Positions 876 to 64,000 of a DNA stretch of 64,000 nucleotides are shown here, piece by piece (the first letter of the stretch is position 1; each line of letters begins with the position of its first letter). The translations under genes were made by a program, and so were the position numbers. The notes beneath the pieces were generated by a model. The model had not been told where the DNA came from. It worked only from the letters and a program-made list of their open reading frames with translations, and searched no databases. Location of the stretch: NCBI RefSeq assembly GCF_963921235.1, contig NC_086097.1, positions 80,664,001-80,728,000 on the forward strand. The letters are read 5' to 3'. Source of the stretch: Mobula hypostoma (lineage: Eukaryota).

Positions 876-1972
876 AAACAAGAGAAAATATGCAGTTGCT
901 GGAAATCCGAGCAATACACACAAAATGCTGGAGGAATTCAGCAGGCCAGGCAGCATTTATGGAAAAAAGCACAGTCGATTCTTCAGACTGAGACCCTTCA
1001 GCAGGACTGGGGAGAATAAAGATGAGGAGTCAGAAGGAAAGTGGGGGGGAGGGAAAGAAGAACCACAAGGTGATAGGTGAACCCTGGAGGGGTGAAGTAA
1101 AGAGCTGGAAAGTTGTTTTTGTGAAAAAGATACAGGGCTGGAGAAGGACGAGTCTGATAGAGGACAGAAGGCCATGGAAAAAAAGAAAAGGGGGAGGAAC
1201 ACCAAAGGGAGGTGGTAGGCAGACAAGGACATAAGGTGAGAGAAGGAAATGGGAATGGCAATGATGAAGGGGGGGGCATTATCAGAAGTTTGAGAAATTG
1301 ATGTTCATGCCATCAGGTTGGAGGCTACACAGATGGAATACAAAGTGTGGCTCCTCCGGCCTGATTGTGGCCTCATCGCAACAGTAGAAGAGGCCGTGGA
1401 TGGATATGTTGGAATGGGAATGGGAAGTGGAATTAAAATGGGTGGCCATTGGGAGATCCCTCTTTTCAGATGGACAGATAGAGAGTAGATGCCCGGCAAA
1501 GTGGTATCCCAATCTGCGTTGGGTCTCATCGATATACAGGAGGCCACACCAGGAGCACTGGATACAGTATATGACTCCAACAGACCTCACTTGGAAGGAC
1601 TGTTTGCGGCCCTGAATGGTAGTGAGGGAGGAAGTGTAGGGGCAGGTGTAGCACTTGTTTCACTTGCAAGGATAAGTGCCAGGAGGGAGATCAGAAGAGA
1701 AGGATAAATAGACAAGCGAGTTGTGTAGGGAGCAATCCCTGCAGAAGGCAGCAAGTGGGGCAGTGGGGGGAGAGAAAGATGTGCTTGGTGGTGGAATCCT
1801 GCTGGAGATGGCAGAAATTATGGAGAATTATGTGCTGGATATGGAGGCTGGTGGGGTGGTACATGAGGACAAGAGGAACTCTCTATCCCTGGTGGGATGG
1901 CAGGAGGATGGGGTGAGTGCAGGTGTGCGCAAGATAGAAGAGATGCGGTTGAAGGCAGCTTTGATGGTGCAA
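876..1972 (-). mobile_element. Penelope-like element, 5'-truncated (GIY-YIG C-terminus plus pLTR)
   Basis: ORF 1282-1590 GVIYCIQCSWCGLLYIDETQRRLG..F..H is homologous to 17247-17741; pyrimidine-rich 3' UTR and pLTR at 876-1010. Confidence 0.9.
972..1009 (-). ncRNA. Degenerate hammerhead ribozyme motif in Penelope pLTR
   Basis: Reverse complement cagtc CTGCTGA agggtctcagtct GAAG aa TC gactg: stem I intact, core mutated. Confidence 0.6.
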
Positions 1973-2568
1973 TGAACCATCTGCAGAAATGTTGAGTGCA
2001 AGTGAGAAGTCACGGGTAAGTAGCATCATGACATACAACAGAGGCACCATTTCTACTTCCGATTAACACAAGGTAAAAGAGTGCAGACAAAGAATCAGAG
2101 GCCTACAGAAGCATTAAATATTCTTGGAAGTTTAGGCAAAATGCAAAGCCAGAGGTTTGTTCAGCCAGCTAACGAAGGTTGTTTAGAGGGTGTCAACCTG
2201 AAACATTGACTATCCCTTTGCCTCTACAGATGCTGCTTGACCCATAGAATTCTCCTACAAATTTATTATTTTGCTAAAATTGCTTACAAGCTGTTTTCTG
2301 GACTGTCTTGTTCTGACTCCGCTACATGTCAGGATTATATTGAGTGATTCGTACTGCTGCACAGGAGGAACTAACTGAGACTGGGTCTGTACCTAACCAC
2401 GAGCTGATCTGCAGAAGATATTTGGACATTCATTACATATGTTGCTGATGTATCCAGGTGGATCATTGCTGACAGTAAATTTTGGCTCACTGCATTGTTC
2501 TGTATGGGAACAGGAATAAACTGCAGCTTCCCTTCAGAGCCTGAATGAGGAATTTATGGTAATCTGCA

Positions 2569-3185
2569 TGTAAGGGATTTCTTCTCTTATGCTACTGTAT
2601 ATGCTAATCAAAATGGCTTCTTTGTTATGTTATAATTAAACTGGTTTCTCTGTGATGTTAACTGCTGAGACAGTGATTCTTTTTCTAGCAGCTAGTAGCT
2701 TGTTTGGGTTATCAATAAAGATAAGGAGAGAATGAACCAATGGGTGTCCATGTTAGTCTTTTTCGGGGTGACATTCTGTCTCATCTGGCTGGGAACCGAT
2801 GTGTTTGTGGGGCTTTTCTAGAGAGACCGGGAGAAGATGGACATGCTGGAAGCGCTCTGGCTGATCCACCTTGGGTGGTCCCGAGCTGCGAGTCGAGGGG
2901 GTCAGAGTGGATCGCGGGGTCAAGAGAGAAGACGCCGGGTATTTGAGCTCCAACTGTGTGCACGAAGAAATTGAACTTTGATAAGTCTGGCGCCTTTTTC
3001 TGTTCCTTTTATATTGTATCTCTATTAATGTCATCGTCCCAGTAAGATTTATGAAGTGTAATCTGTAAAGTGTACATTGTGTGCCGTCTGATATTTGATG
3101 TTTGAGGTCGTACCAGGTGGCATTGCACAGCAACCGACGCAACCAGGAGACATGGTTGGGTGGCGGACTGGGTTTCCCCTAGGTA
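2569..3185 (+). mobile_element. LTR-like sequence, right end not resolved
   Basis: Starts TGTAAGGG; non-coding; shares TTTGAGCTCCAAC..TGTGCAC with the reverse complement of the LTR at 18340-18982. Confidence 0.5.
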
Positions 3186-4040
3186 AACCCCAGCGCATCA
3201 AGTCCATGATCCAGGCTGGGTACAACGTCCTGCCTGGTCCAGCCAACCTTTTTGCTTGGAGCAAAAATGAGGCACTATAATGTCCTCTCACCCCTGGCAG
3301 AGGGACCCTGGTACATCTCCTCAGGAGCTGTACAAAAGCCATGGGAGAAGGCTGCTACCACTAGCACCATGACCAGGAGCTGAAGGCAATGGCAGAAAAT
3401 AACTCCTCAGCAGATTAACAACAGTAAGCATCTCCACCAACCGCGAAAGCCATTGCCTTTGAAAAAGTTGGAAACTAACCTCAGCCCAGATCACTGGCAG
3501 GCTTGCTCGCCATAGTGTCTGTCTGGCAACTGAAAGTTGATCTTGGTAAGCAATTAAAGTTACCTAACTTCATCGTATTGTCATCCCTAAGGCCTGAAAT
3601 GGTCATTCTGTCAGAAGCTTCGAAACCTTGGTCATGGTAGGACTGACTGCCTTGGCAAGACTTGATTGAGGAGGCACTTGAGTGCAAGAAAGCCAAGTAC
3701 TAGGAGCTGATAAAGCGGTGCCTGCGACAGGGGTGGAGGGCACATTGTGAGCCGGTGGAGGTGGGCTTTAGAGGTTTTGCTGACTGCTTGCTCTGCAGAA
3801 CCTACTCTCTCCTTAGCATTATGGGGGCAACAAATTGAAGAGCCATAGAGGGTGCTGAGTGAATCTCCAGATGGCTATGGATCAAGAGGTGTGGCGCATT
3901 GACCAGCTGGCTCACGAGCAGGGGCTTGATCAACCCTGGCTGAGTCACCTGAGCGAGGGTGTCTGATGTTGAAAGACCCAAAACACCCAATGACTTCAGG
4001 TTACATCAGTCATGACGTGGTCCAGTGCATCGTAGGATGT
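3186..4040 (+). mobile_element. HERO/NeSL-like (R2 superfamily) non-LTR retrotransposon, 3' fragment with restriction-like endonuclease
   Basis: Broken frames read PQRIKSMIQAGYNVLPGPANLFAW, decayed CCHC ..RGTLVHLLRSC..., HHDQELK, WQLKVDLGKQLKLP..LRPEMVILS, RKAKYQEL, EPVEVGFRGF; structured 3' UTR. Confidence 0.8.
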
Positions 4041-5214
4041 ATCTCAGCATTGCTAAGATATGTAGGTGAGGAGAACATTAGCAGGGGGAGCTCCATGTAA
4101 TATTGTTTACAGATGAAGAAAAATAGATGGCACATTCTTCAAGAAAATGTGTTGACATAATTACTAGTAAAATGGAAAGGGACCCAAGAGTCTCTGTAAA
4201 CTGCATATTAAATCCACTCAGCTTTAAATATCAAAACAAATTGAATATACATTTTGTGAGGAAGAGAGTTGAGTCTTCCAGAGGAAATTGAGCTAAGAGA
4301 GCAGTGTGATAAAGTCAGAGGCACACCTTGGATGTCATTTCCAGTTCTCGTCTGCAAGACCATGTACAGAGGGCCCAACACCAAAGACAGATAAGAGAAG
4401 AGTCCACTGCAAGGAAGGCTTCCTTAACATTATGATATATATTCAGGGAAAAAAATGATATTTGAGAAATAGTCTCACTGAGGCAGATGGATGATAATGT
4501 GAGAAAGATTAATTTGATACATTACTTCAAAGAGGTGGACTGGGGTTTATATGTTTAAACAAGTATAAAGCAAATTTTGGGCACATTCTTCATTACATAT
4601 CTAGAATTCAGCATAGATAGAAAAGATACTTTGGAATCATTGAGGGAAAAGGTGGATTGCACAATGACAGACATTGGGATCTATCAAAACAGATGGATTA
4701 AGTTGGGCCGCATGGTCTTTTTCATCCACGGTTACCATCTGTTACTAATCTGCATTAATGGCAGTGACATATAAATTAACAAATGCAGTTCTTGGTATCA
4801 GTAATGTTGCATATCAAGTAGCCATACATCTGGTGTTGTGAGAAATGCTTACTTTGTGGCCCATTGCCAGTCATTTAATGAGAGAGTACTGCTGAAGACA
4901 AGTGAAATGAACTTCATTTGCCATATCCTTCCACTTAGTAGAAGATTGTTGAAAGCTGCAAGTATAGAAAATTATTTTTCCCAAGTTAACACATGATGCA
5001 TAATACTTGTATACAAACAAAAAGAACAAGTGAAGAGAAGGATAATTGCTCGGGTGAGCCTCTATATCATATTCACAGATCTGACTATCCTGTATGTCAA
5101 CTTCATTCCAAAATTTGGGGTTTGAATAAATTTAGTAGATTGCTGGATGGTTTACAACCAACCTTTAAGTTGGTTATTCAGTCTACTTTGAAAGGCAGCC
5201 AACATAATCAAAGG

Positions 5215-5530
5215 CCCTTCCCACTCAGCAGACAATATGAAAAGCTGAATCACGAGTCACTAGGCTTAAGACCAGCTTCTATCTAGCTGTCATAAAACTC
5301 TTGAATGGACCTCTTATATGAAAAAGATAAACTCTTGATCTCTCAATCATGGCCTTTGCACCATATCTGGCAACCTACATCGCATTTTTGCTGCAACTGG
5401 AACATTGCAATCTGCATTCTATTATAGTTTTACTTTTGTACCACCTCGATGTACTTGTGCATGGAATAATCTGTCTAAATGGCTTGCAAGCAAAGTTTTT
5501 CATCCTACCTCTAGTGAAAACTAGAAACCA
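5215..5530 (+). mobile_element. Rex1/Babar-like LINE 3' UTR remnant
   Basis: Similar to 590-870 (ataaaactcttgaatgga, ctgcattc, aataatctg..tggc..gca..caaagtttttc). Confidence 0.55.
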
Positions 5531-5696
5531 ACTCTGTATTTTCTTTTTGCTTTGTAATTTTTTTAGGCAGGTTATTTCTCATGTTCAGTGAAGTAAATAG
5601 CATGACATTTCCTAGGTCAGATATAAAGTCAGGATGATTATCCTTCCACTTTCCATCTCACAGCTTTTTTTGCAGTATCTTATCTTCTGGGGTTTG

Positions 5697-6568
5697 TAGA
5701 AACATAGAAAATCTACAGCACAATATAGGCCCTTCAGCCCACAAAGTTGTGCCGAAAATGTCCCTACCTTAGAAATTATTAGGGTTACCCATAGCCCCCT
5801 ATTTTTCTAAGCTCCATGTACCTATCCAAGAGTCTCTTAAAAGACCCTATTGTATCCACCTCCACCACTGTTGCTGGCAGCCCATTCCACGCATTCACCA
5901 CTCTCTGAGTAAAAAGCTTACCCCTGACATCTCCTCTGTACCTACTCCCCAGCACCTTAAACCTGTGTCCTCTTGTGGCAAGGTTTTCAGCCCTGGGAGA
6001 AAGCCTCTGAATAAACACACGATCAATGCCTCTCATCATCTTATACACCTCTATCAGGTCATTTCTCATCCTCCGTCGCTCCAAAGAGAAAAGGCCGAGT
6101 TCACTCAACCTACTCTCATATGGCATGCTCCCCAATCCAGGCAACATCCTTGTAAATCTCCTCTGCACCCTTTCTATGGTTTCCACATCCTTCCTGTAGT
6201 GAGGTGACCAGAACTGAGCACAGTACTCCAAGTGGGGTCTGACCAGGGTCCTATATAGCTGCAACATTACCTCTCAACTCCTAAATTCAATTCCACGATT
6301 GATGAAGGCCAATACACCATACGCCTTCTTAACCACAGAGTCAACCTGCGCAGCTGCTTTGAATGTCCTATGGACTCTGACCCCAAGATCCCTCTGATCC
6401 TCCACACTGCCAGGAGTCTTACCATTAATACTATATTCTGCCATCGTATTTGACCTACCAAAATGAACCACTTCACACTTATCTGGGTTGAACTCCATCT
6501 GCCACTTCTCAGCCCAGTTTTGCATCCTATCAATGTCCCATTGTAACCTCTGACAGCCCTCCACACTA
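5697..6568 (-). mobile_element. CR1 LINE 3' part (host of the nested CR1)
   Basis: ORFs with WAEKWQMEFNPDKC and LVRPHLEYCAQFWSP...FTQRVVNAWNGLP; (TTTCTATG) tail at the left end. Confidence 0.95.
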
Positions 6569-12473: not shown

Positions 12474-13362
12474 TATTTGTCAATGTGGAGCAGAGAGCAA
12501 GTCTGTAAAATTGGCTGGAGCGAAGGATGTTGGGAATGGTGAGAACGGAGTACAGCAGGGGGGTGTGGGATAAGTGGCAGAGAAGGAATGCCAGGACGGG
12601 GGTTAGTGTAGGTGCAGACACATCCAGCACTGAGACACCAAGCAAAGTCATTTGATTCTCAACAATTGGTTTATTGATCATTATGGGATGTCTCTCTAGT
12701 GCTTTCTACTCCCTCATGTCTCCGTTCCCCTTTTCCCAACCATGATTCTCCTCACCCTGCCCCCCTTCCAACTCTCAATCATAAAAGAGACCCATATCAG
12801 AATCAGGTTTATCATCAAAGGTTCAAAGGTTCATTTTGTTATCAAAGTATGTATGCAAAATACAACTCTGAGATTTGCCTTTTCTAGATAGCCACAGAAT
12901 ACAGAAAACAGAATACAGAATACAGAGGTAGTTCAAAGGAAAGACATCATTCCCCCCACCCCCCCCAACACATGAAAAGCTCACAAACCCCAATCCCCCT
13001 AAACCCTCCCTCACATAAAAACTAACAGATCACCCACATGGAGAAACAGCAACAAGAACATCAAACCCCAAAACCCCCAGCCCGCCACCCAGCAACAAGA
13101 AAGAATGTGCGAGACATGAAAACAAAACAGAACTGGAAGAGGCCAAGTGAACTACAGTTACTTTGAACTACAATCCAATCCATAAATCTCAGAATTTCTT
13201 TCTTTTTAAATCTTTGTACTGAATTAGTACACAAAAGGTAAACCATGTAGACACTAATACACCGTTGCAATATAAATTTACAAGAGATATTAATACACAA
13301 AAAAATTAGTACAAACAATGCAGTTTAGATATAAAATAACAAGGTAATATAATTAATATAAC

Positions 13363-13500
13363 TAGTCCTGGCGAGGGGTCTCGGCCTGGGGCGTCGACTG
13401 CGCCTCTTCCTGTGGAAGCTGCCTGGCCTGCTGCGTTCACCAGCAACTTTGATGTGTGTTGCTTGAATTTCCAGCATCTGCAGAATTCCTGTTGTTTGTG
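13363..13500 (+). mobile_element. Solo Penelope pLTR fragment in the L1 3' UTR, 13-bp TSD
   Basis: Aligns to 18034-18169; TSD aaggtaatataat at 13341-13353 and 13501-13513. Confidence 0.92.
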
Positions 13501-13742
13501 AAGGTAATATAATAGTATACTAATTTTCCATACATATCAATAAAGAGAGGAAAACCCCCCAGAAAAACCCCAAAAAAACCCCACCATGCAACTAATCTGA
13601 AAAGCAAAACAAAGCAATGGGCTAACTAGGTATCAAGTAGACTTAAACAACTTAAAACAATCACGTCCTCAAACCCGACCTCCATTAAAAACAGTTAAAA
13701 AACAAGAAGGGAATGTAAATATGTGGCAAAGAGAAAAAAAAA

Positions 13743-17050: not shown

Positions 17051-17264
17051 GATGTATGTCTTGAAATTTGTTTTTTGTAGCAGCAGTACTTAAAATTACT
17101 ACAGTACTGTGCAAAAGAGGTACCATAGCTGTATATGTGTGCCTAAGACTTTCATAAGTAATAAGAAAATACTTCTATTATTATATTCAATAATGAAGAT
17201 CAGTGTGTCCACCTTCAGCATTGCATGAACCTAAACAGCCTCTGACATGAACTCTATAGACAGC

Positions 17265-17741
17265 TCCCTACGCAACTCCCTTGTCCATTTGTCCCCCCCA
17301 TCCCTCCCCACTGATCTCCCTCCTGGCATTTATCCATGTAAGCGGAACAAGTGCTGCACATGCCCTTACACTTCCTCCCTTACCACCATTCAGGGCCCCA
17401 AACAGTCCTTCCAGGTGAGGCAACACTTCACCTGTGAGTCGACTGGGGTGATATACTGCGTCCGGTGCTCCCGATGTGGCCTTTTATATATTGGCGAGAC
17501 CCGACGCAGACTGGGAGACCGCTTTGCTGAACATCTACGCTCTGTCCGCCAGAGAAAGCAGGATCTCCCAGTGGCCACACATTTTAATTCCACATCCCAT
17601 TCCCATTCTGACATGTCTATCCACGGTCTCCTCTACTGTAAAGATGAAGCCACACTCAGGTTGGAGGAACAACATCTTATATTCCGTCTGGGTAGCCTAC
17701 AACCTGATGGCATGAACATCGACTTCTCTAACTTCCGCTAA
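17265..17741 (+). pseudogene. Penelope GIY-YIG endonuclease domain (5'-truncated ORF)
   Basis: CKRNKCCTC...GVIYCVRCSRCGLLYIGETRRRLGDRFAEH...LEEQHLIFRLGSLQPDGMN; the ATG at 17247 appears to lie in flanking DNA. Confidence 0.9.
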
Positions 17742-18034
17742 GGCCCCACCTCCCCCTCGTACCCCATCTGTTACTTATTTTTATGCACACATTCTTTCTC
17801 TCACTCTCCTTTTTCTCCCTCTGTCCCTCTGAATATACCTCTTGCCCGTCCTCTGGGTTCCCCCCCCCCGTCTTTCTTCCCAGACCTCCTGTCCCATGAT
17901 CCTCTCGTATCCCCTTTTGCCTATCACCTGTCCAGCTCTTGGCTCCATCCCTCCCCCTCCTGTCTTCTCCTATCATTTTGGATCTCCCCCTCCCCCTCCC
18001 ACTTTCAAATCCCTTACTCACTCTTCTTTCAGTT

Positions 18035-18070
18035 AGTCCTGGCGAAGGGTCTCGGCCTGAAACGTCGACT
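18035..18070 (+). ncRNA. Minimal type I hammerhead ribozyme motif (A6>G variant)
   Basis: agtc CTGGCGA agggtctcggcct GAAA cg TC gact. Confidence 0.75.
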
Positions 18071-18339
18071 GCACCTCTTCCTACAGATGCTGCCTGGCCT
18101 GCTGCGTTCACCAGCAACTTTGGTGTGTGTTGCTTGAATTTCCAGCATCTGCAGAATTCCTGTTGTTTGAGTTCCTCCAGCATTCTGTGTGTGTTGCTTT
18201 CCTGTCTCTTTCCAGTTAACGTACTTTTGTTTCCTGTGAAACCCCCTTTTTCCGAGTGTCTCTTTAGATACAGCTTGATACCTACTTGTTAACAGCTGCC
18301 TGACTCAGCATTGAGAAAAACACCTTTTCAGGCTCTGTA

Positions 18340-33945: not shown

Positions 33946-34150
33946 CCAAACACAAGAAAATCTGAAGATGCTGGAGATCCGAAGCAACACACACAAAATG
34001 CTGAAGGAACTCAGCAGGCCAAGCAGCATCTATGGAAAATAGTAAACTGTCCTAAAGAAGGATCTCAGCCTAAATCATCAACTGTTTACTCTTTTCCATA
34101 GATGCTGCCTGGCCTGCTGAGTTCCACCAGCATTTTGTGTGTGTTGCCTT
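33946..34150. mobile_element. Fold-back Penelope pLTR mini-element, 11-bp TSD
   Basis: Inverted arms 33984-34047 and 34084-34147; TSD ctaaaaggatt at 33935-33945 and 34151-34161. Confidence 0.88.
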
Positions 34151-43212: not shown

Positions 43213-44076
43213 AAAGCAACTAGGTCTGAGCTACGACACCAATGGACTTTGTAGCTTAGTACCATCTTGACCAGAAAATGGCTCTGTCAGAGACTGGTGC
43301 TATTCCTAGATATGTTAATTTGCAAGTTAGGATTGGTTTAATAAATTGCAGGGAAACATATGAATTAATAATGTAGTCAGAGAGTATACAAGTTTTACAC
43401 TTCATCAGTTTTAGAATCTTTTCACTGCTAGCTAAATTAATTTTCTTACAGAGTTATTCATTGCAAATTAACAATCTGTTTTTTTTGTTTTTGATGCTTA
43501 TAATTTGTCAGTTCTTTTGCCCAGCATTCTCACCATGCCTCTTAAAAACAGATGCACTCTGTGAGTAAACAGCAATCAATTATATAGTTTGTAAACTCAG
43601 TCATGGACTCTGATTGAATGGTCTACGTGGGATGAATAATTTAGGATGCAAACACCAGGTATTGAAAAGTGGAAGCATCAAGCCATTATTTGGGGACAGG
43701 TACTGGGAGAATGTTCTGCAGGAATAAGATGCTAAATTGTTAAGGGTAAGGCAGGGAGGGTGAAATTTGTGATGAGGGCATGGAGCTGGAGTTTAATATG
43801 GTTTTGCTGTTTAGCCAAGATGGGATATTAGACAACAATTTGCCCACATAGAAAGAGTAGAACTTTGAGAGAGCATGTGGATAAATATGACTGGATGTAA
43901 TCAGCAGATTTACAGAAACTATCCCTTTGTCACCAAATTATATTGTTACATGACATCTGTACCTGGAAAGAGAGGGCCAAGGATAGATCGACAAAAACAA
44001 CAAAGCACGGAAGCTAAGTAACACGCACAACACACTGGAGGAACTCAGCAGGTTGAGCAGCATCCGTGGAAACGAA

Positions 44077-44114
44077 CAGTCAATGTTTCAGGCCAAGACT
44101 CTTCGTCAGGACTG
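44077..44114 (-). ncRNA. Minimal type I hammerhead motif
   Basis: cagtc CTGACGA agagtcttggcct GAAA ca TT gactg. Confidence 0.75.
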
Positions 44115-44684
44115 TAGGGGGAAGGGGCAGGAGCCCTATAAAGAAGGTGGGGGGAGGGTGGGAAGGAGAAGGCTGGTAGGTTCCAGGTGAAAAACCAGTA
44201 AGGGTAAAGATAAAGGGGTGGGGGAGGGGGAGCAGGGAGGTGACAGGCAGGAAAGGTGAAGAAGGAATAGGGGAAAACACAATGGGTAGTAGAAGGAGGC
44301 AGAACCAAGAGGGAGGTGATAGGCAGCTGGAGGAGGGGGCAGAGTGAAACTGGGATGGAGGAAGGGAGGGAGAGGGAATTAGCAGAAGTTGGAGAATTCA
44401 ATGTTCATGCCCAGGGGCTGGAGACTACCCAGACAGTATATGAGGTGTTGCTTCCCCAACCTGAGTATGCCTTTGGACTTTGTTGAATGCCTATCGCCCC
44501 CCTCTTGGTACCGCCTCCTTCTACTACCCATTGTGCTTTCCCTATGCATTCTTCACTTTTCCTGCCTATCCCCTCCCCCACCCCTTGATCTTTCCCCTTA
44601 CTGGTTTTTCACCTGGTACCTCCCAGCCTTCTCCTTCCCACCCTCCCCCCGCCTTCTTTATAGGGCCCCTGCCCCCTCCCTCTT

Positions 44685-44722
44685 CGGTCCTGATGAAGGG
44701 TCTCGGCCCGAAACGCTGACTG
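44685..44722 (+). ncRNA. Minimal type I hammerhead motif (U16.1>C)
   Basis: cggtc CTGATGA a GGG tctcgg CCC GAAA cg CT gactg. Confidence 0.8.
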
Positions 44723-45486
44723 TTTATTTCCACGGATGCTGCCCGACCTGCTGAGTTCCTCCAATGTGTTGTGCATGTTGCTTTGACCCCAGCATCTGCA
44801 GAGTATTTTATGTTAAGGAAGCTAAGTTAGAGACTGCATGTAGCCACACTGCTAAACGTATCTACATACATGACAGCACCTCTGTTGATATATCAGGATA
44901 CAAGGTCCAATGGTTTCACACACTTAGCCACATTATTAATTCATTGACATCCTTAGCACAAACTAAGTTAACCTGAACAAGTAAAGACAATTAAAAAAAA
45001 GTAAAGATGGTTACAGACTGGCCAATTGTGCTCAAAATAACCAAACATGAAAATACCATTCACTTGCAAGCAGACTGGAGTGATGCCTTCCAAAATGTCC
45101 CACCAGGATGAGATTAATAGCATCCAAGAATCTGCAAGCAAATGAAGGAATCATCGACAGGATTGCTAAAAGTAATGTTTATAAGCTGTCCACTGAAGTT
45201 AGTCATGGTTGGCTTTGACCAGTTGGGTCCATTTCTATGTCTCTCATCTCTATCTTCTGTGCACAGCAGTATTTACACTGAAACAATATCACATAACTAG
45301 GTTGGTTTACTTTGATTATATGCTGGATTAAATGGTTATGAAGCATATGAATTCCACCCTCACATTTTATACTAATAGCAAGATATATCTCAGAACCCCC
45401 AAGGTGAGAACTTGGAGCAGCAGAATGCGAAAGAAGTGAGATACAGTTAAAGAGGTGGTGCTCTAGGTCTTTGTCAAAGGCTCTCA

Positions 45487-48659: not shown

Positions 48660-51600
48660 CAGAGAGTCAGAGTTGTACAGCACAGGAACTGGTCCTTTCG
48701 CCCCCAGCATTCACACTGACTCTTGATCACCTACATTAATCCTATTAGCTCACAGTAGGCCCATGACCTTCCACTCCTTACCTATGTAAGTGGTTGCCTA
48801 AATATATAATTCCACCACCTCCTCTAGCAACAAATTTCAGATATCAACCATTCTGTCACTAAAAAATACTTTTCCTCAAATCCCTTTTAAAACTGCTTCT
48901 TTGCACCTTAAACTATACCTATCGTGGAAAACAAAACTGATTTTTCACCTTATCTATGCCTCTTATGAATTTATATGCTTTTTCAGGTCACCCCTTAGCC
49001 TGCTTCATTCCAGGCAATGCAAGCCCACCCTATCCAGTCTCTCCCTATATCCAAAGTCCTCCAGTCCAGGCAACATCCGAGTGAACATTCTCTTCGCTCT
49101 CTCCGGTGCATCCACATCCTTCTTAGAATGTGGTGACCAGAGCTGCACATAATACTCCAAGTTCAGTCTAACTTTGTAAATTTGTAATGTATCATCCCAA
49201 CTTTTATATTTTATTTCATCACCTATGAAGGCAAGCTTGTCATTTGCTTTCTTCACCTCTCTTCCTCCCTTTGCTGCCAGTTTCAGAGAGCTGTAGACAA
49301 ACTCCAGGGGAGGATGGAGCATAAAGGAAGAAATAATGGGAGCTTGACTGAAAGGTAAAACAATATTCATGAGGGATTTAAATCTACATATAGACAAGAA
49401 AATCAGCAAGGCAATGACAGCTGAAATGAACATTTGATCAAGCACTTTCTGGTGAATTTCTTAGAACAGCATGTTCAGGGGCCAAATAGAGAACAGCAGT
49501 ATCAGAGCTAGTTTTGTGCAATGAGAAAGGATTAATTAATAGCTTCACAATGAAGGTACTTCTGGGTGACAATTGCCACATTATGATTGCATTTTGTATT
49601 CAGTTTGAAGGAGAGAAAGGAAAAACAACAAATATAATGGCAGATTAGGTTAAGGGGGCTGCTCAGTCTAGATTTAGAGGAATCTTTCAGAATATAAATG
49701 ATAGATATATTCCAACAAGAAAAGAAAAAAAAATCAAAGATGAGGGCCCATCGTTTGTGATTAAGTAATAAAAGGTGAAGTATCTACAGAGAAAGCGAGT
49801 AATAACACAAAGATCGGAGGAATGGAGTGAGTGCAGAACAACAAATGTCTAAAAGATCAAAAGGAAGGATGAATTACATCATGAGATAAAACTAGCCATA
49901 GAGTTTCTGGAGACTATTACAAAGGAAAAAGTTAACACGGTGACTGTTAGTCCTTCAGACAGTGAGACTGGGAAATTATTATGGGAAAGCAATGAACGTT
50001 CTTAGTTGTCATCTATATCAATGATCTGGATGATAATGTGGTAGACTGGATCATTAAATTTGTGAATGACACCAAGACTGGGGGCAGGGTAGACAACGAG
50101 GAAGGCCAGCAAGGCTTGCAGTGGGATCCTGAAAAATGGTAGATGGAATTCAATACAGACAAGTGTTGTACTTTGGCAGGACTGACATGATGAGCAGAAG
50201 GGCACTGAGGTGTATGGTAGAACAGAGGGATCTGAGAAACCAGATCCAGAATTCCTTGAAAGTGGAGTCATAAGTAGATTGTGTCATAAAGAGAGCTTTA
50301 GGCACATTGCCCTCCCTAAACTAAAGTATTGAGTACAGGGCATTGTGTTGAACTTGTATTAAACATTGGCGAGGCTTAATTTGGAGTATTGTGTGCAGTT
50401 TTGGTCACCCGTGTCCAGGAAAGATATCAATAAGATTGAAAGAGTGCTGAACACATTTATTTGCTGGGACCTGAGGACCTAGGTTATAGGGAAAGATTGA
50501 ACTGGTTAGGATTCTATTCCCAGGCACGTAGGAGAATGAGAAGCGATCTGATAGACACATGCAAAATTATGTGGGATATAGATATGGTGAATGCAAGCCG
50601 GCTTTTCCCATTGAGGTTGGGTAAGACTGGGACTAGAGGTCATGGGTGAAGGGTAAAAGGTGAAATGTTTAAGGGAAATATTAGGGGGATCTTCTTCGTT
50701 CAGGATGGGGCGAGAGTGTGGAACAAACTGCAGAAGAAAGTGGATGAGGGTTCAATTTCAACATTTAAGTGAATTTTGTATAAGCACAAGGCTGGAATGG
50801 GTATGGAGGGGTATGATTTTGACGCTGGTCAATTAGGCAAGGCAGAATAATAGCTCAGTATGGATTAGATGGGCTGAAGGGCCTGTTTCTGTCCTGTCAT
50901 GTTCTATAACTCTATAATGAGGTAGCAAGTGATTTAAGCAGAGATGTTGCATCAACCTTCACTGTAGAAAATACAAATAATGTTCTAGAAAAACCTGTAA
51001 ATCAGGAACTGGAAAAGAACCCTGAAAAAAAATTAAGCTAGTAGGACAATTGTTACACTGGCTTCTAGTTCACCAACTTCCCTTGTTTCAGAGGAAGTTC
51101 CATTAGAAAATGGCAAGTGTAACTCCTTTTCAAAAAGGAGTGGAGTCAGAAAACAAGAAGCTACACGCCAGTCAGCTGAATATCTGTCATGGGGATAATG
51201 TTAAAAGCTAATGCTTTTAGGGCACTTAAATTATTCTAGGTAATCAAAGTAGTTTTCTGCAAAAGTTATCATGTATGGTTAGGTTATTGGAGTTCTTTGA
51301 AGAAGTAACATGGGTCGTGGATAAGAGGCAAACAATAGATGTACGAGGGGTGATTGATAAGTTTCGTGGCCTAAGGTAGAAGAAGTCAATTTTGGAAAAC
51401 CTAGCACATTTATTTTTCAACATAGTCCCCTCCTACATGTACACACTTAGTCCAGCGGCCATGGAGCATATGGATCCCTTCTTTGTAGAAGTGGTCCACA
51501 GCAAGGGTGATTGATAAGTTTGTGGCCTAAGGTAGAAGGAGTTGAGTTATTAACTTCAAACTTTCTGCATTATCACTCAAAGAGTTGAACTGCACGTGCA

Positions 51601-52030
51601 TGTAACGAGAGCATCTTGGACCTCCAGGTGGTCCACAGCAGGGGTGATTGATAGGTTTGTGGCCTAAGGTAGAAGGAGATGAGTTATACAGCTCTCGTTA
51701 CATGCACGTGCAGTTCAACTCTTTAAGTGAAAATGCAGAAAGTTTGAAGTTTCTCCTCATTGCCTTCTACCTTAGACCATGAACTTATCAATCACCCCTG
51801 CTTGTGGACCACTTCTGGAGGTCCAAGACTTCTACAAAGAAGGGATTCATATACTCCACGACCGCTGGACTAAGTGTGTAACTGTAGAAAAAATAAATGT
51901 GCTAGATTTTCTAAAATTGACCCCTTCTACCTTAGGCCATGAACTTATCAATCACCCCTCGTACTTTCCTTAGATTTCCAAAATGTATTTGATAAGGTGC
52001 TACATTAAGGATTATTTGTGAAAGTAAAAA
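48660..52030. mobile_element. Cluster of decayed CR1 pieces: (-) 48660-49290; old (+) 49290-52030, interrupted by CR1 50000-50917 and by a MITE
   Basis: LEYYVQLWSPH, decayed FADD/LEYC segments; the D.....DF...FDKV motif rejoins across the MITE. Confidence 0.75.
51344..51961. mobile_element. Mariner-like palindromic MITE, TA TSD
   Basis: ta|cgaggggtgattgataagtt...aacttatcaatcacccctcg|ta; long inverted arms with internal TIR repeats. Confidence 0.92.
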
Positions 52031-59769: not shown

Positions 59770-62125
59770 GAGGTAGGCAACTTGGTGCCAGTGCCAAAGA
59801 AGAACATGGTAGCCTGCCTCAATGATAATCATTCAGTAGCACCTACATCGACAGGGATGAAGTGTCACGTGATCGGCAACAATAAATTATCAATTGAGGC
59901 AGATTTCATAAACAAGCATAAACATTTATTAAACTCTGCTCAACAATAGCAAAAAGTATTCAAACGACTAACTTAACCAGAAGTTAACTGCTATACGGCA
60001 ACTCAGGAACAGTTCTTAAAAGGGTAAATTCGAAAACAGTTGTTAAAATGGTAAATTTGAAAGTCCAAGTGATTTACACAGCCAATAAGGAGAGACTTCT
60101 CTGGAAACGGATTTCTTCAAAGACGTGACGTTACTGCTGGTTCTCCAAAGGATTCACGACGAAGGAAATAAAATGGCTTAAAGAAACTGACCTTTTCCAG
60201 GCGAGTGAACACTGCACAAACTTCTCTGCTCTTGCAGGAGTTATCTCAGATACAAGTCACTTTTCTGAACGAGGATTAAATAAGGTTGATCCTTCATTAA
60301 ACTGCCGATACTCCAACTTTATTCCGATCCTTCAGGTTCCCATCCTTTAGTAATGTCTTCACTCTCCAATACTACTGTAAAGTTAAATCAAGGATACACC
60401 AACAAAGCTGGCAGAGATTGGTGAAACTGCCAGCACAACGATTTTACCTTACAATAGAAAGTAAAACTCCATTTTAAAACGAAACTGCGTCATGAGACGA
60501 ACACGCAGCATAACCGAGTAACTAACGAAGCAAAAAACAACTCAACTGAAAACTAAACTGCATCACACCAGGGGTCTCCTTTATACCTGTTGAGAACAGG
60601 TCATCATGTGACCTCACACTGGCGGGAAAACTGCATCATGTGACCTCCACAAGACCATTACATCATGCTCATAAGGCAGTCAATTACATCATGGTCTTAA
60701 GATAGTCACAAGATACCCACGAGGTATGTAACAGAAGTGTTTTGAGAGGTTGATGATGAAACATATCAACTCCTGCCAGAGAAATGACTTGGATCCGCTC
60801 CAATTGGCCTACTGGAGCAAACGGTCCACAGTAGATACCATTTCATTGGTTCTTCACTCAACCCTGTAACATTCGGACAACAAAGGTGCATACATCACGA
60901 TGTTCTTTATTGACTACAGCTGAGCATTCAATACTATCGTCCCCACAAAACTAATTAATAAGCTTCAAGACCCAGGCCTCAATATATCCTTGTGCAATTG
61001 GATCCTCAATTTTCTCTACTGCAGATCCTAGTCTGTTTGGATTGACAACATCATCTCCTCAACAATTACCACGAGCACAGGCGCACCACTGGGCTGTGTG
61101 CTTAGCCCTCTGCTCTACTCACCTTACACTTATGACTGTGAGGCTAAGCAGAGATCCAATGCCATATTCACGTTTGCTGAGGACACCACTGTCGTAGGCC
61201 GAATCAAAGTGATGATGAATCAGCATACAGGATGGAGACTGAAAATCTGGCTGAGTGGTGCCATAACTACAACCTCTTACTCCATGTCAACAAGACGAAG
61301 GTATGAAATCAGAGGTCCATGAGCCTCTCCTCATCGGAGGATCAGAGGTGGAGGGGATAAGTAACTTTAACTTCCTCAATGTTTTTTCGAGGATCTGTCC
61401 TGGACCCAGTAGATGAGTGCAATTACAAAGAAAGCACAGCAGTGCCTCTGCTTCCTTAGGAATTTGCAAAGATTTGGCATAACATCTAAAACCCTGACAA
61501 ACTTCTGTAGATGTGAGGTGGAGAGTAGATTGACTAACTGCATCACAACTTGGTATAGAAATACCAATGCCTTTGAACAGAGAATCCTGCAAAAAGTAAT
61601 GGATACGTCCCAGTCCATCACAGCTAAAGCCCTCCCAACCATTGAACACATCTACATGAAACACTTTGCAGGAAAGCAGCATCCATCATCAGTGGCCCCC
61701 ACCACCCAGATCATGCACTCTTATCGTTGCTGCCATCAGGAAGAAGGACTCACACCACCAGGTTCATGAACAGTTATTACCCCTCAACATTCAGGCTCTT
61801 GAACCAAAGGAGATAACTTCACTCAATTTCACTTGCCCCATCATTGAATTGTTCCCACAACCTATGGACTCACTTTTCAGAACGCTTCATCTCATGTTCT
61901 GGATATTTATTGCTAATTTATTTATTATTAATATTATTTCTTTCTGTTTGCATATGCAGTTTGTTGTCTTTTGCACGTTGGTTTGGATGCCCAAGTTGGT
62001 GTGGTCTTTCATTGATTCAATTATGGTTACTATGCTTTTATGGATTTATTGAGTATACCTGCAAGAAAATGAATCTCATTGTTGTGTATGGTGACCCATG
62101 TATACTTTGATAATAAACTTATTCT
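59770..62125 (+). mobile_element. Rex1/Babar LINE nested in the Gypsy element
   Basis: VPVPKKN..CLND..VA.TS..MK|CFERL; LSPLLYS.YTYDC; FAED; 3' tail tttgataataaactt. Confidence 0.9.
59863..60733 (-). mobile_element. Solo LTR (871 bp), 4-bp TSD GAAG
   Basis: TG...CA termini; gaag at 59859-59862 and 60734-60737; minus-strand TATAAA near 60580 and AATAAA near 59925; short catcatg(t)g repeats. Confidence 0.9.
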
Positions 62126-62911
62126 GATTTTTGGTGAGAGAGGTGAAAGGAGTGGTGATTTGGCTGTAGTTTCTGAGGAACCAGCAGTACAAGTTGGAGA
62201 AGCTGAAGAAGAATGGCAGCTGTTCGAGGGAGCACTGCTGGGGCCATTAAATAATGGCACACATGTTCTCTGGGCCCATGGTTATGCCTTGAGGTGAAAG
62301 AATGTAACCCAAAAGGAAATGACTGGGCATGTAACTGGCATTTTTCTAACTTGCAGCACAGTTGGTTTTCGAGGAGACACTGGAGGACTGATCGGACATG
62401 ACAGATGTGTTCTTGGAGGTCCTTGGAGAAGATGTGGATGCCTTCAAGGTAGATGAACACATACGTGTGTAGCATGTCTGGGAGGATCTCATTAATTAAG
62501 GCCTGGAAAATGGCTGGACTGTTGGTGTTGACAATCAGACTTTCCATGTATTTGTACTGGCCAGTGGGTTTTTTGATTGCCATCATCCATTCACCCCCCT
62601 GCAGGACACAAATCTGGTTGGACGCACTCCATAGACCCAGTTTGGCAAAGATCTAGGCCCCATGAAGTGTTTCAAATGAAGTGCTGTCCATCAAGTGGAG
62701 AGAGTAGCAGTTCTTAATGGTGATTTTTTTGACTCCACAATAGTCCCTCATCTTTCTTCCAGACAAAGAAAAGTCCTGTAGCTGCTGGAGACTGGGATGG
62801 CTGAATGAATCCGTGCTGTAGTGCTTCAGTGATGTAGTCATTCATGGGTTAGGTCTGAGGAGGGGAGAGGGAGAACAGACAATCTCTCAGAGGGGTGGTG
62901 CCTGTGAGGAG

Positions 62912-63010
62912 GACTGATGTAAGGCTTTCTGCCGAAACATCGACTGTTTACTCTTTTCCATAGATGCTGCCCGACCTGGTGAGTTCCTTCAGTATTTTGT
63001 GTGTGTTGCA
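62912..63010 (+). mobile_element. Penelope pLTR remnant with decayed hammerhead
   Basis: CTGATGT aaggctttctgcc GAAA ca TC gactgtttactcttttccatagatgctgcc. Confidence 0.8.
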
Positions 63011-63559
63011 TCCATCATTCAGTTCCTTGTCCTGTTACATATGAGATGATCCATTTTGGGTGACTATGAAGTACTAAGATACAGTATTATCAGTTCTGTT
63101 CACCCCAGCAGTCAACGAGTACTCTTTAAAAAGGTCTCATTGGGCATTTCTCTAAGTAGTATTGTGCTCAACGGCTTGGCTCTGTAGACTGGAATGATTC
63201 CAAGTTCTCATGCCTTCGAAATTGCTTCAATTTCTTTGATAGGTTACAATCCATTTAAACCTACTTAGGCAAAGCAAAGCATTTACTTTCATACAATTCA
63301 CACTTGGTTCTCTTGACCTTTACATGAAGTTCATGTGACTACCGAATACTTCTACTATTCTATATTTGTGGCTAAGAGGACATCACTCTAATTCCATGAA
63401 CAATGATCTCCAACTATTTGCATCTTCTCTTCTGTAGCGTGAATGGTCTTCAGAAATAATTTCACACAATCATTACTTTTGTTTAGGAATAAAGACCTTG
63501 ATGCCCTTTAATTGTCAAATATTGCTAACACTCCTTGTCTGCAGTCAAGCTCAAATTTC

Positions 63560-64000
63560 AAGTTCAAATTTTGAAGTAAATTTATTATCAAAGAATAAAC
63601 ATGTTACCATATACTACCTTGAGATTCATTTTTCTTGCAGGTAATTACAGGAAAAGAAATACAATGACATTTTTTGAAAAACTATATATAAACAAAGACT
63701 TACAAACAATCGATGTGCGAAAGAAGGCAAACCATGTAAATAAAAATAATACTGAGAACATGAGATGTAAAGAGTCCTTGAAAGTGAGTCTGTAGGTTGT
63801 AGAATTAGTTAAGAGTAGTGGAAAATGAAGTTATCCACAGCAGTTCAGGAGCCTAATGGTTGTAGGGCAATAACTGTTCCTGAACATGGTAGTGTGGGAC
63901 CCAAGGCTTCTCTATCTCCTCCCCGTTGTTTCGTAGAGAGAAAGTGGCACAGTCTGGATGGTGGGGGTCTTCGTTGGTGGATGCTGCTTTCTTGTAGCAG
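63560..64000 (-). mobile_element. Rex1/Babar-like 3' fragment (runs off the window)
   Basis: Minus strand KKAASTNEDPHHPDCATFSL...RSL..H..MFRNSY plus 3' UTR. Confidence 0.75.

Follow-up and report, generated by a model that had tools for sequence, protein, structure and literature searches.

The 64,000-nt stretch of Mobula hypostoma DNA analysed here (the window) contains a 5'-truncated, 136-nt fragment of a Penelope-like pLTR on the forward strand (13363..13498), whose 3' end lies at the 'tail' start of reverse transcription. The fragment is flanked by a 13-bp target-site duplication (TSD; left copy 13341..13353, right copy 13501..13513, + strand), with nine extra bases resembling an imperfect target copy at the 5' junction (13354..13362, + strand) and two extra bases (13499-13500) before the right copy. 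Since the 13-mer region is present once in seven of seven empty-site paralogues of the flanking host repeat (five exact, two with one mismatch), the TSD is confirmed, and the TSD-flanked pLTR of the original prediction is real. The hallmarks of a retrotransposed copy, namely the TSD, the 5' truncation and a 3' end at the start of reverse transcription, are thus all present, and the copy is a dead fragment. The window also holds a longer, independent 3' fragment of the same family at 17263..18169 (+ strand), which comprises the end of the GIY-YIG region, the 3' UTR and a pLTR and is not hypermutated, with a lone G at 18042. Two head-to-head pLTR pairs of more distant subfamilies lie at 33981..34150 (77-80% identical; an example of a hairpin-forming locus) and 44016..44783 (72-80% identical; a 768-nt fold-back). 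These inverted pLTRs had been proposed as the source of double-stranded RNA; they serve as a model substrate, but not as the partner of the copy, to whose subfamily they are only 72-80% identical.

On the order of domains in its long copies, in which the reverse transcriptase (RT) comes first and the GIY-YIG endonuclease is C-terminal, the family is assigned to the Penelope-like elements (EN+). A 679-aa frame in one long copy (L152) matched RVT_1 (E 2.5e-5) and then GIY-YIG (E 6e-4), both below the Pfam curated cut-offs. As an unbiased family sample, we used 115 young arms around the first listed intact-core 23-mer matches, a choice that is itself biased against hammerhead-edited copies. The 3' ends of these arms fall at two sites about 34 nt apart (53/115 at 1-4 nt and 36/115 at 30-39 nt from the end), and 50 of the 115 (about 43% of young arms) belong to head-to-head pairs. 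TSDs of 14-15 bp were present in 10 of 23 cases examined, and a clear TSD was looked for and not found at L271, L063 and L068. The RT and GIY-YIG ORF, the minimal-hammerhead pLTR and the two 3' ends about 34 nt apart are shared with the Penelope-like elements described in the available portions of PMC4209133 and PMC11167929, whose pLTRs may carry a tail of 30-40 nt, the latter of which reports that in an Anolis element the 'tail' separates two RT start sites. Unlike the present case, the word 'editing' is absent from the available text of PMC4209133, and no editing is mentioned in that of PMC11167929.

By inspection against the description of minimal hammerheads in Penelope-like elements (PMC4209133, in its available part), a minimal type I hammerhead motif was placed at 13363..13400 (+ strand), with stem I at 13364-67/13396-99, the core at 13368-74, stem II at 13376-87, G12-A15.1 at 13388-91 and a predicted cut after 13395. 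The family majority has the core, the extra base between positions 9 and 10.1 and the palindromic helix III of such a ribozyme, whereas the 136-nt copy does not conform, as its A6, A13, A14 and A15.1 are all G. The change of the catalytic GAAA to GGGG, as originally described, is therefore present in the copy (A13, A14 and A15.1). By hammerhead chemistry, G at these four positions should abolish cleavage, and the loss of the core A's is thus predicted to kill self-cleavage of the copy. An Rfam scan of the window did not match the hammerhead and returned only two unrelated weak matches. In the 18-kb copy, otherwise unedited, the lone G at 18042 is an A6-to-G change in the hammerhead, and G occurs there in 2/97 unbiased arms. 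A pyrimidine tract ending in CAG (18013-18033) directly precedes hammerhead stem I and resembles a splice acceptor; the 5' ends of 35/115 arms lie 120-139 nt from the end, and in Drosophila virilis Penelope the end of an intron is at helix I, according to the available part of PMC4209133.

Compared with 18034-18169, the copy has G for A at 13375, 13389, 13390, 13391, 13402, 13412 and 13414, and otherwise differs by C>T at 13413, T>A at 13417 and A versus G at 13452. These differences are as originally listed, but the 18-kb fragment that had been taken as a sister copy proved to be an independent neighbour of the same family, and the copy was scored against the family majority. As a result, it showed an A>G tract at 13371..13414 (+ strand), with seven A>G changes (13371, 13375, 13389, 13390, 13391, 13412 and 13414) among 23 non-polymorphic A's plus one T>A, and the probability of at least seven is 6e-11 at the 0.6% background observed in the unbiased family sample (13 G in 2172 A observations). 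The G at 13402 and the T at 13413 cannot be counted as changes, because both are common alleles (29/108 and 37/109 arms of that sample, respectively), and 13402 and 13456, both G at polymorphic sites, were left out of the scoring. The G at 13371, found in 2/97 unbiased arms, was missed earlier because the 18-kb copy also has G there; with 13402 removed and 13371 added, the cluster still numbers seven. At 13452 the copy carries the family majority A, and the 18-kb copy is the deviant one. The surviving shared A's at 13374, 13397 and 13416 do each have a 5' G, the context disfavoured by ADAR, but so do two of the seven changed A's (13371 and 13389), and the context argument is thus weak within the 136-nt copy alone. 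An A in the favoured TAG context at 13364 is unchanged, and may derive from the target site. Folding of the 136-nt copy alone gave no long hairpin (z -0.5 to 0.1, 3/3 sequences), and neither a partner nor a parent of the copy was found when these were sought.

We then examined how the G-rich form is distributed in the 3.48-Gb genome. The unedited AAA 23-mer has 54,483 exact matches and the GGG 23-mer has 10, against 0.01 expected if mutations were independent. The last two A's were changed in 35 matches, of which 11 were GGG, 2 were other triples, 6 were AGG and 16 were other doubles; GGG thus made up 11/13 triple changes, and 3/3 at an A-run of the UTR. In the unbiased sample an A>G tract was present in 1/115 arms, a rough estimate, and the edited class is rare. 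Runs of at least four same-type changes numbered 1 A>G, 0 T>C, 1 G>A and 2 C>T in the 115 arms, within a total spectrum of 217 C>T, 124 G>A and 60 A>G, so that A>G does not exceed the CpG-type runs in this sample taken alone. Targeted searches, which give no frequency and from which arms with more than 45% other changes were dropped (e.g., the sense arm of L213), yielded 27 hyper-edited arms in 483 alignments, consisting of 19 A>G arms, which belong to 18 insertions, and 8 antisense T>C arms. At least six diagnostic backgrounds are represented among the edited copies, whose patterns are not nested, and edit tracts also occur in the ORF and 3' UTR (L208, L209 and L147). The GGG form is therefore not an amplified subfamily consensus, with its 10 matches against 54,483 for AAA and its several backgrounds. 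In six short head-to-head pairs (L119, L127, L070, L115, L044 and L049), both arms share sense-strand edits and private changes and one arm ends at each RT start site; these are likely two primings on one RNA. Another head-to-head pair (L149, C96:14.085 Mb) has one arm with 15 sense A>G changes and a clean second arm, and likely combines two different template RNAs in one insertion.

Daughter insertions were then compared directly with their parents in the same genome. One daughter on C80 (L061, about 1010-6141; G000:C80:32622000-32627140) is a single insertion of 5.1 kb, with a duplication of 8 bases as judged by eye, in which a long Penelope copy is followed by 1.27 kb of transduced host DNA and then by the antisense and sense arms. 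Its host DNA has one other full-length match, the parent on G000:C36 (L290). Relative to this parent, the antisense arm has 52/93 A's changed to G with one other change, against 0/442 in the host DNA spacer and 2/51 in the primed sense arm. The upstream long Penelope copy, which is absent from the C36 parent, carries 16 dense edits only at 84-246 nt from its 3' end, the span with which the 273-nt antisense arm can pair. A second daughter on C68 (L270, 4472-7475), bounded by a 17-bp TSD whose copies are 3 kb apart, is Penelope-primed and carries 2.3 kb of transduced host DNA; the region of origin is duplicated, and the two parents lie on G000:C66 at 52.44 Mb and 52.32 Mb (L306 and L307). Against these two, respectively, A>G changes affect 62/111 and 64/113 A's of the antisense arm (the 64 accompanied by one other change), 2/661 and 2/657 of the host DNA, and 1/47 and 1/50 of the sense arm. 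The C36 and C66 parents are unedited. Between daughters and parents, the edits are thus almost only in pairable segments and on the RNA strand. Clusters of T>C, which in a strand-symmetric pattern were to speak against editing, do exist, but the arms concerned are antisense in the RNA of the parent loci and read as A>G on the copied RNA, as the editing model predicts. Editing of the cDNA, or of antisense RNA made by the RT, had been considered as the source of the T>C arms and was dropped once the parents were found.

The final ~100 nt of the daughter belong to another subfamily in each of the two parent-daughter pairs; the windows of the switch lie 98-110 nt (C68) and 98-166 nt from the end, and the predicted hammerhead cut (104/103) falls within both. 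The primed 3' sense arm is unedited in 5/5 Penelope-primed composites (L061, L270, L271, L272 and L273), though it could pair with the adjoining edited antisense arm, and a simple hairpin does not explain these unedited primed arms. Linkage between sites gave no support for a hotspot of recombination at the hammerhead cut (mean r2 0.31 upstream, 0.19 across and 0.16 downstream).

A further set of insertions (L240-L246, on C21, C122, C71, C45 and C22) are copies, with varied 5' truncation, of one chimeric RNA composed of a decayed Penelope ORF, an inverted pLTR insert and a shared 3' end that we take to be CR1-like. Two of these copies share one 5' end, and one relative is without the insert. 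L242 is unedited, and its locus folds as a hairpin (z -13.7), whereas L240, L241 and L243 are edited in differing patterns in both hairpin arms and the upstream pLTR, always on one strand. Against L242, A>G changes affect 11/30 A's in the upstream pLTR; among the edited copies, they affect 17/47, 20/45 and 8/20 in the antisense arm, 3, 5 and 3 of 10 in the sense arm, and 0/75, 5/162 and 1/139 in the other parts. In addition, both the sense and the antisense arm of L213, which lie within a single 14-bp TSD, are edited on one strand.

The neighbours of the changed A's in the antisense arms fit ADAR, as judged from the genomic copies, in the order U, A > C > G. By 5' neighbour, the edited share was 33/38 for U, 114/140 for A, 81/134 for C and 90/235 for G (.87/.81/.60/.38), with a p value of 4e-16 that is overstated, as related copies share sites. 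The same counts against the true parents were U 4/8, A 23/27, C 12/22 and G 13/36 for the C80 antisense arm, and U 7/7, A 24/32, C 13/24 and G 20/50 for that of C68. Depletion of 5' G at ADAR targets is reported in the accessible part of PMC4365171. In the sense arms overall, 5'-G depletion was absent (53/135, p 0.68), and a preference for U and A emerged only with the ascertainment sites removed (U 39/78, A 31/64, C 27/138 and G 35/136), with C below G. We also compared contig runs from two related organisms, which come from other individuals or species and unmatched samples and whose RNA status is guessed. At the site of 13412 (18083), A>G amounted to 12.6 and 11.5% in the presumed RNA-type runs versus 2.0 and 2.0% in the DNA-type runs; the corresponding values were 4.9 and 4.2% versus 0.8 and 1.2% at the site of 13414 (18085), 3.5 and 3.3% versus 0.5 and 0.7% at 18113, and 2.2 and 2.1% versus 0.3 and 0.4% at 18116. 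The excess in presumed RNA-type runs was thus 3.4- to 9-fold at these four sites, and among the seven A>G positions listed it was weak at 18073 and not consistent at 18020 and 18137. A CpG-type change at 18044 behaved in the opposite way, with 0.8 and 2.0% in presumed RNA-type versus 6.9 and 8.2% in DNA-type runs.

The copy at 13363..13498 is thus a member of a rare class of genomic copies with clustered A>G changes on the copied strand, which were very probably made by ADAR in double-stranded RNA before reverse transcription carried them into the germ line. Editing of Penelope RNA by ADAR followed by retrotransposition, as originally predicted, is well supported by the parent-daughter pairs, the hairpin family and the neighbour bias, to which the comparison of presumed RNA-type with DNA-type runs adds no more than supporting evidence. 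We propose that read-through transcripts would carry antisense pLTR arms, which would pair with sense pLTR RNA; that ADAR in germ-line cells would turn about half of the A's in such sense-antisense duplexes into inosine; and that the Penelope (or CR1-type) RT would read inosine as G during target-primed insertion. The 136-nt copy itself probably derives from a template RNA that was edited in its own right, and there is a smaller, though by no means negligible, chance that it inherited its edits from an already edited source copy. The further reading that editing serves the host as a defence by inactivating the ribozyme was not supported, as the ORF, 3' UTR and antisense arms are also edited, the copy is dead, and mutants of the hammerhead core did not reduce insertion by the Anolis Penelope-like element in vitro, as reported in the available portion of PMC11167929. 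Since the editing is not confined to the hammerhead and the core mutants left insertion in vitro unaffected, the hammerhead loss looks incidental, and the loss of the core A's would be a by-product.

We considered whether the tract could instead mark a small, amplified G-rich lineage, with the copy made from an already G-rich source. The seven sites of the copy are indeed all among those edited in L061 and L127, and a haplotype common to the copy, L061, L064, L119 and L127 occurs in 5/18 edited insertions versus 1/100 unbiased arms. However, L061 and L127 have 8 sites in common and differ at six more, which shows that equal sub-patterns arise independently; editing of a polymorphic A can itself make the shared haplotype; and the several backgrounds with non-nested patterns speak against one lineage. 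Such a lineage would leave the first origin of the tract unexplained and so overlaps with the editing explanation; a non-editing origin of it has a very slight probability. Clustered changes of a single type are also a feature of retroviral RT errors, and bursts of A>G could in principle come from error-prone reverse transcription under nucleotide-pool imbalance. This is highly unlikely here, because the same RT pass changed 0/442 and 2/657 A's in the adjoining host DNA and spared the primed arm, the tracts coincide with pairable segments, and the A>G excess is already seen in presumed RNA-type runs.

Deamination of adenines in DNA, either in the cDNA strand of an RNA:DNA hybrid or in the genome after insertion, deserves mention, as the DNA strand of model hybrids is open to editing by ADARs (PMC12925331, in its accessible part) and the ends of the T>C arms coincide exactly with RT start sites. 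These ends, however, are inherited from parent loci, with the arm antisense in the copied RNA, both arms are A>G on the RNA strand, and the parents are unedited, which makes this route very improbable. Least probable is a sequencing or assembly error. The base calls do rest on the assembly, since no sequencing-run contig spans the site (best share 0.39 of words) and the flank is a repeat, but 26 edited arms or insertions on many contigs show the ADAR-like context and structure-dependent limits, and inverted twins such as L119 and L127 carry identical edits on both strands.

Beyond ADAR editing and reverse transcription as such, it is conceivable, though rather unlikely, that Penelope elements capture host RNAs by sense-antisense pairing in trans with active element RNA, with ADAR marking and template switching as parts of the process. 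In such a scheme, a host read-through transcript would pair through its antisense pLTR arm with the RNA of an active element, and the duplex would be marked by ADAR; the RT would prime on the active RNA, switch near the hammerhead cut to the host transcript, whose sense arm is free, and then copy kilobases of host DNA. The scheme draws on the unedited primed arm (5/5), the switch window that spans the predicted cut (2/2) and the edited sense partner captured in one daughter. Pairing in trans would explain both the unedited primed arm and the subfamily switch; a missing intermediate locus or ordinary homologous switching would do so as well.

A-to-I editing is normally lost with the RNA. In the family described here, non-LTR retrotransposition appears to have turned it into a heritable mutation, for which the unedited parents within the same genome serve as controls. 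Our search of the open-licence literature yielded no account of A>G hyper-editing fixed in the germ line among Penelope-like or other non-LTR copies. The closest precedent comes from avian retroviruses, which captured A-to-G hypermutation of the ADAR type (Hajjar and Linial 1995; Felder et al. 1994; as cited in the available parts of PMC12925331 and PMC8586724), in which likewise about half of the A's in an inverted repeat became G and were reverse-transcribed into DNA. Those viruses are exogenous, whereas here many independent germ-line insertions, Penelope-like and CR1-ended, coexist with their unedited parents. APOBEC-edited endogenous retroviruses (Knisbacher and Levanon, PMC4866542, from its accessible text) are similar in that deaminase footprints fixed in genomic copies were found by comparison of copies, but they involve G>A changes from editing of the cDNA in LTR elements, in contrast to A>G on the RNA strand, in pairable segments only, in a non-LTR element. 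ADAR hyper-editing of inverted repeats in transcripts (PMC4365171 and PMC2873906, in their available portions) shares the A>G clusters, the 5'-G depletion and the need for a long duplex, but occurs in RNA and is not inherited; in high-quality DNA traces of human and Xenopus, A>G was not over-represented, according to the accessible part of PMC2873906.

The edited copies would thus serve as a record in DNA, readable from assemblies alone, of paired RNA segments and of ADAR activity in the germ line, and would be for RNA what the APOBEC fossils of endogenous retroviruses are for cDNA. With their two priming sites, template switches and transduced host DNA, they also offer a handle on the poorly known insertion intermediate of Penelope, and if pairing in trans were true, the A>G tracts would show, with date and strand, where RNA duplexes formed in the germ line, and would likewise chart the retrotransposition intermediate. 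The extent of the effect is small, at 1/115 sampled arms. Two further inverted repeats in the window, at 51363-51943 (55-61 nt arms) and 62066-63632 (56 nt arms, 1.45 kb apart), are unrelated to the pLTR and are possibly DNA-transposon ends.
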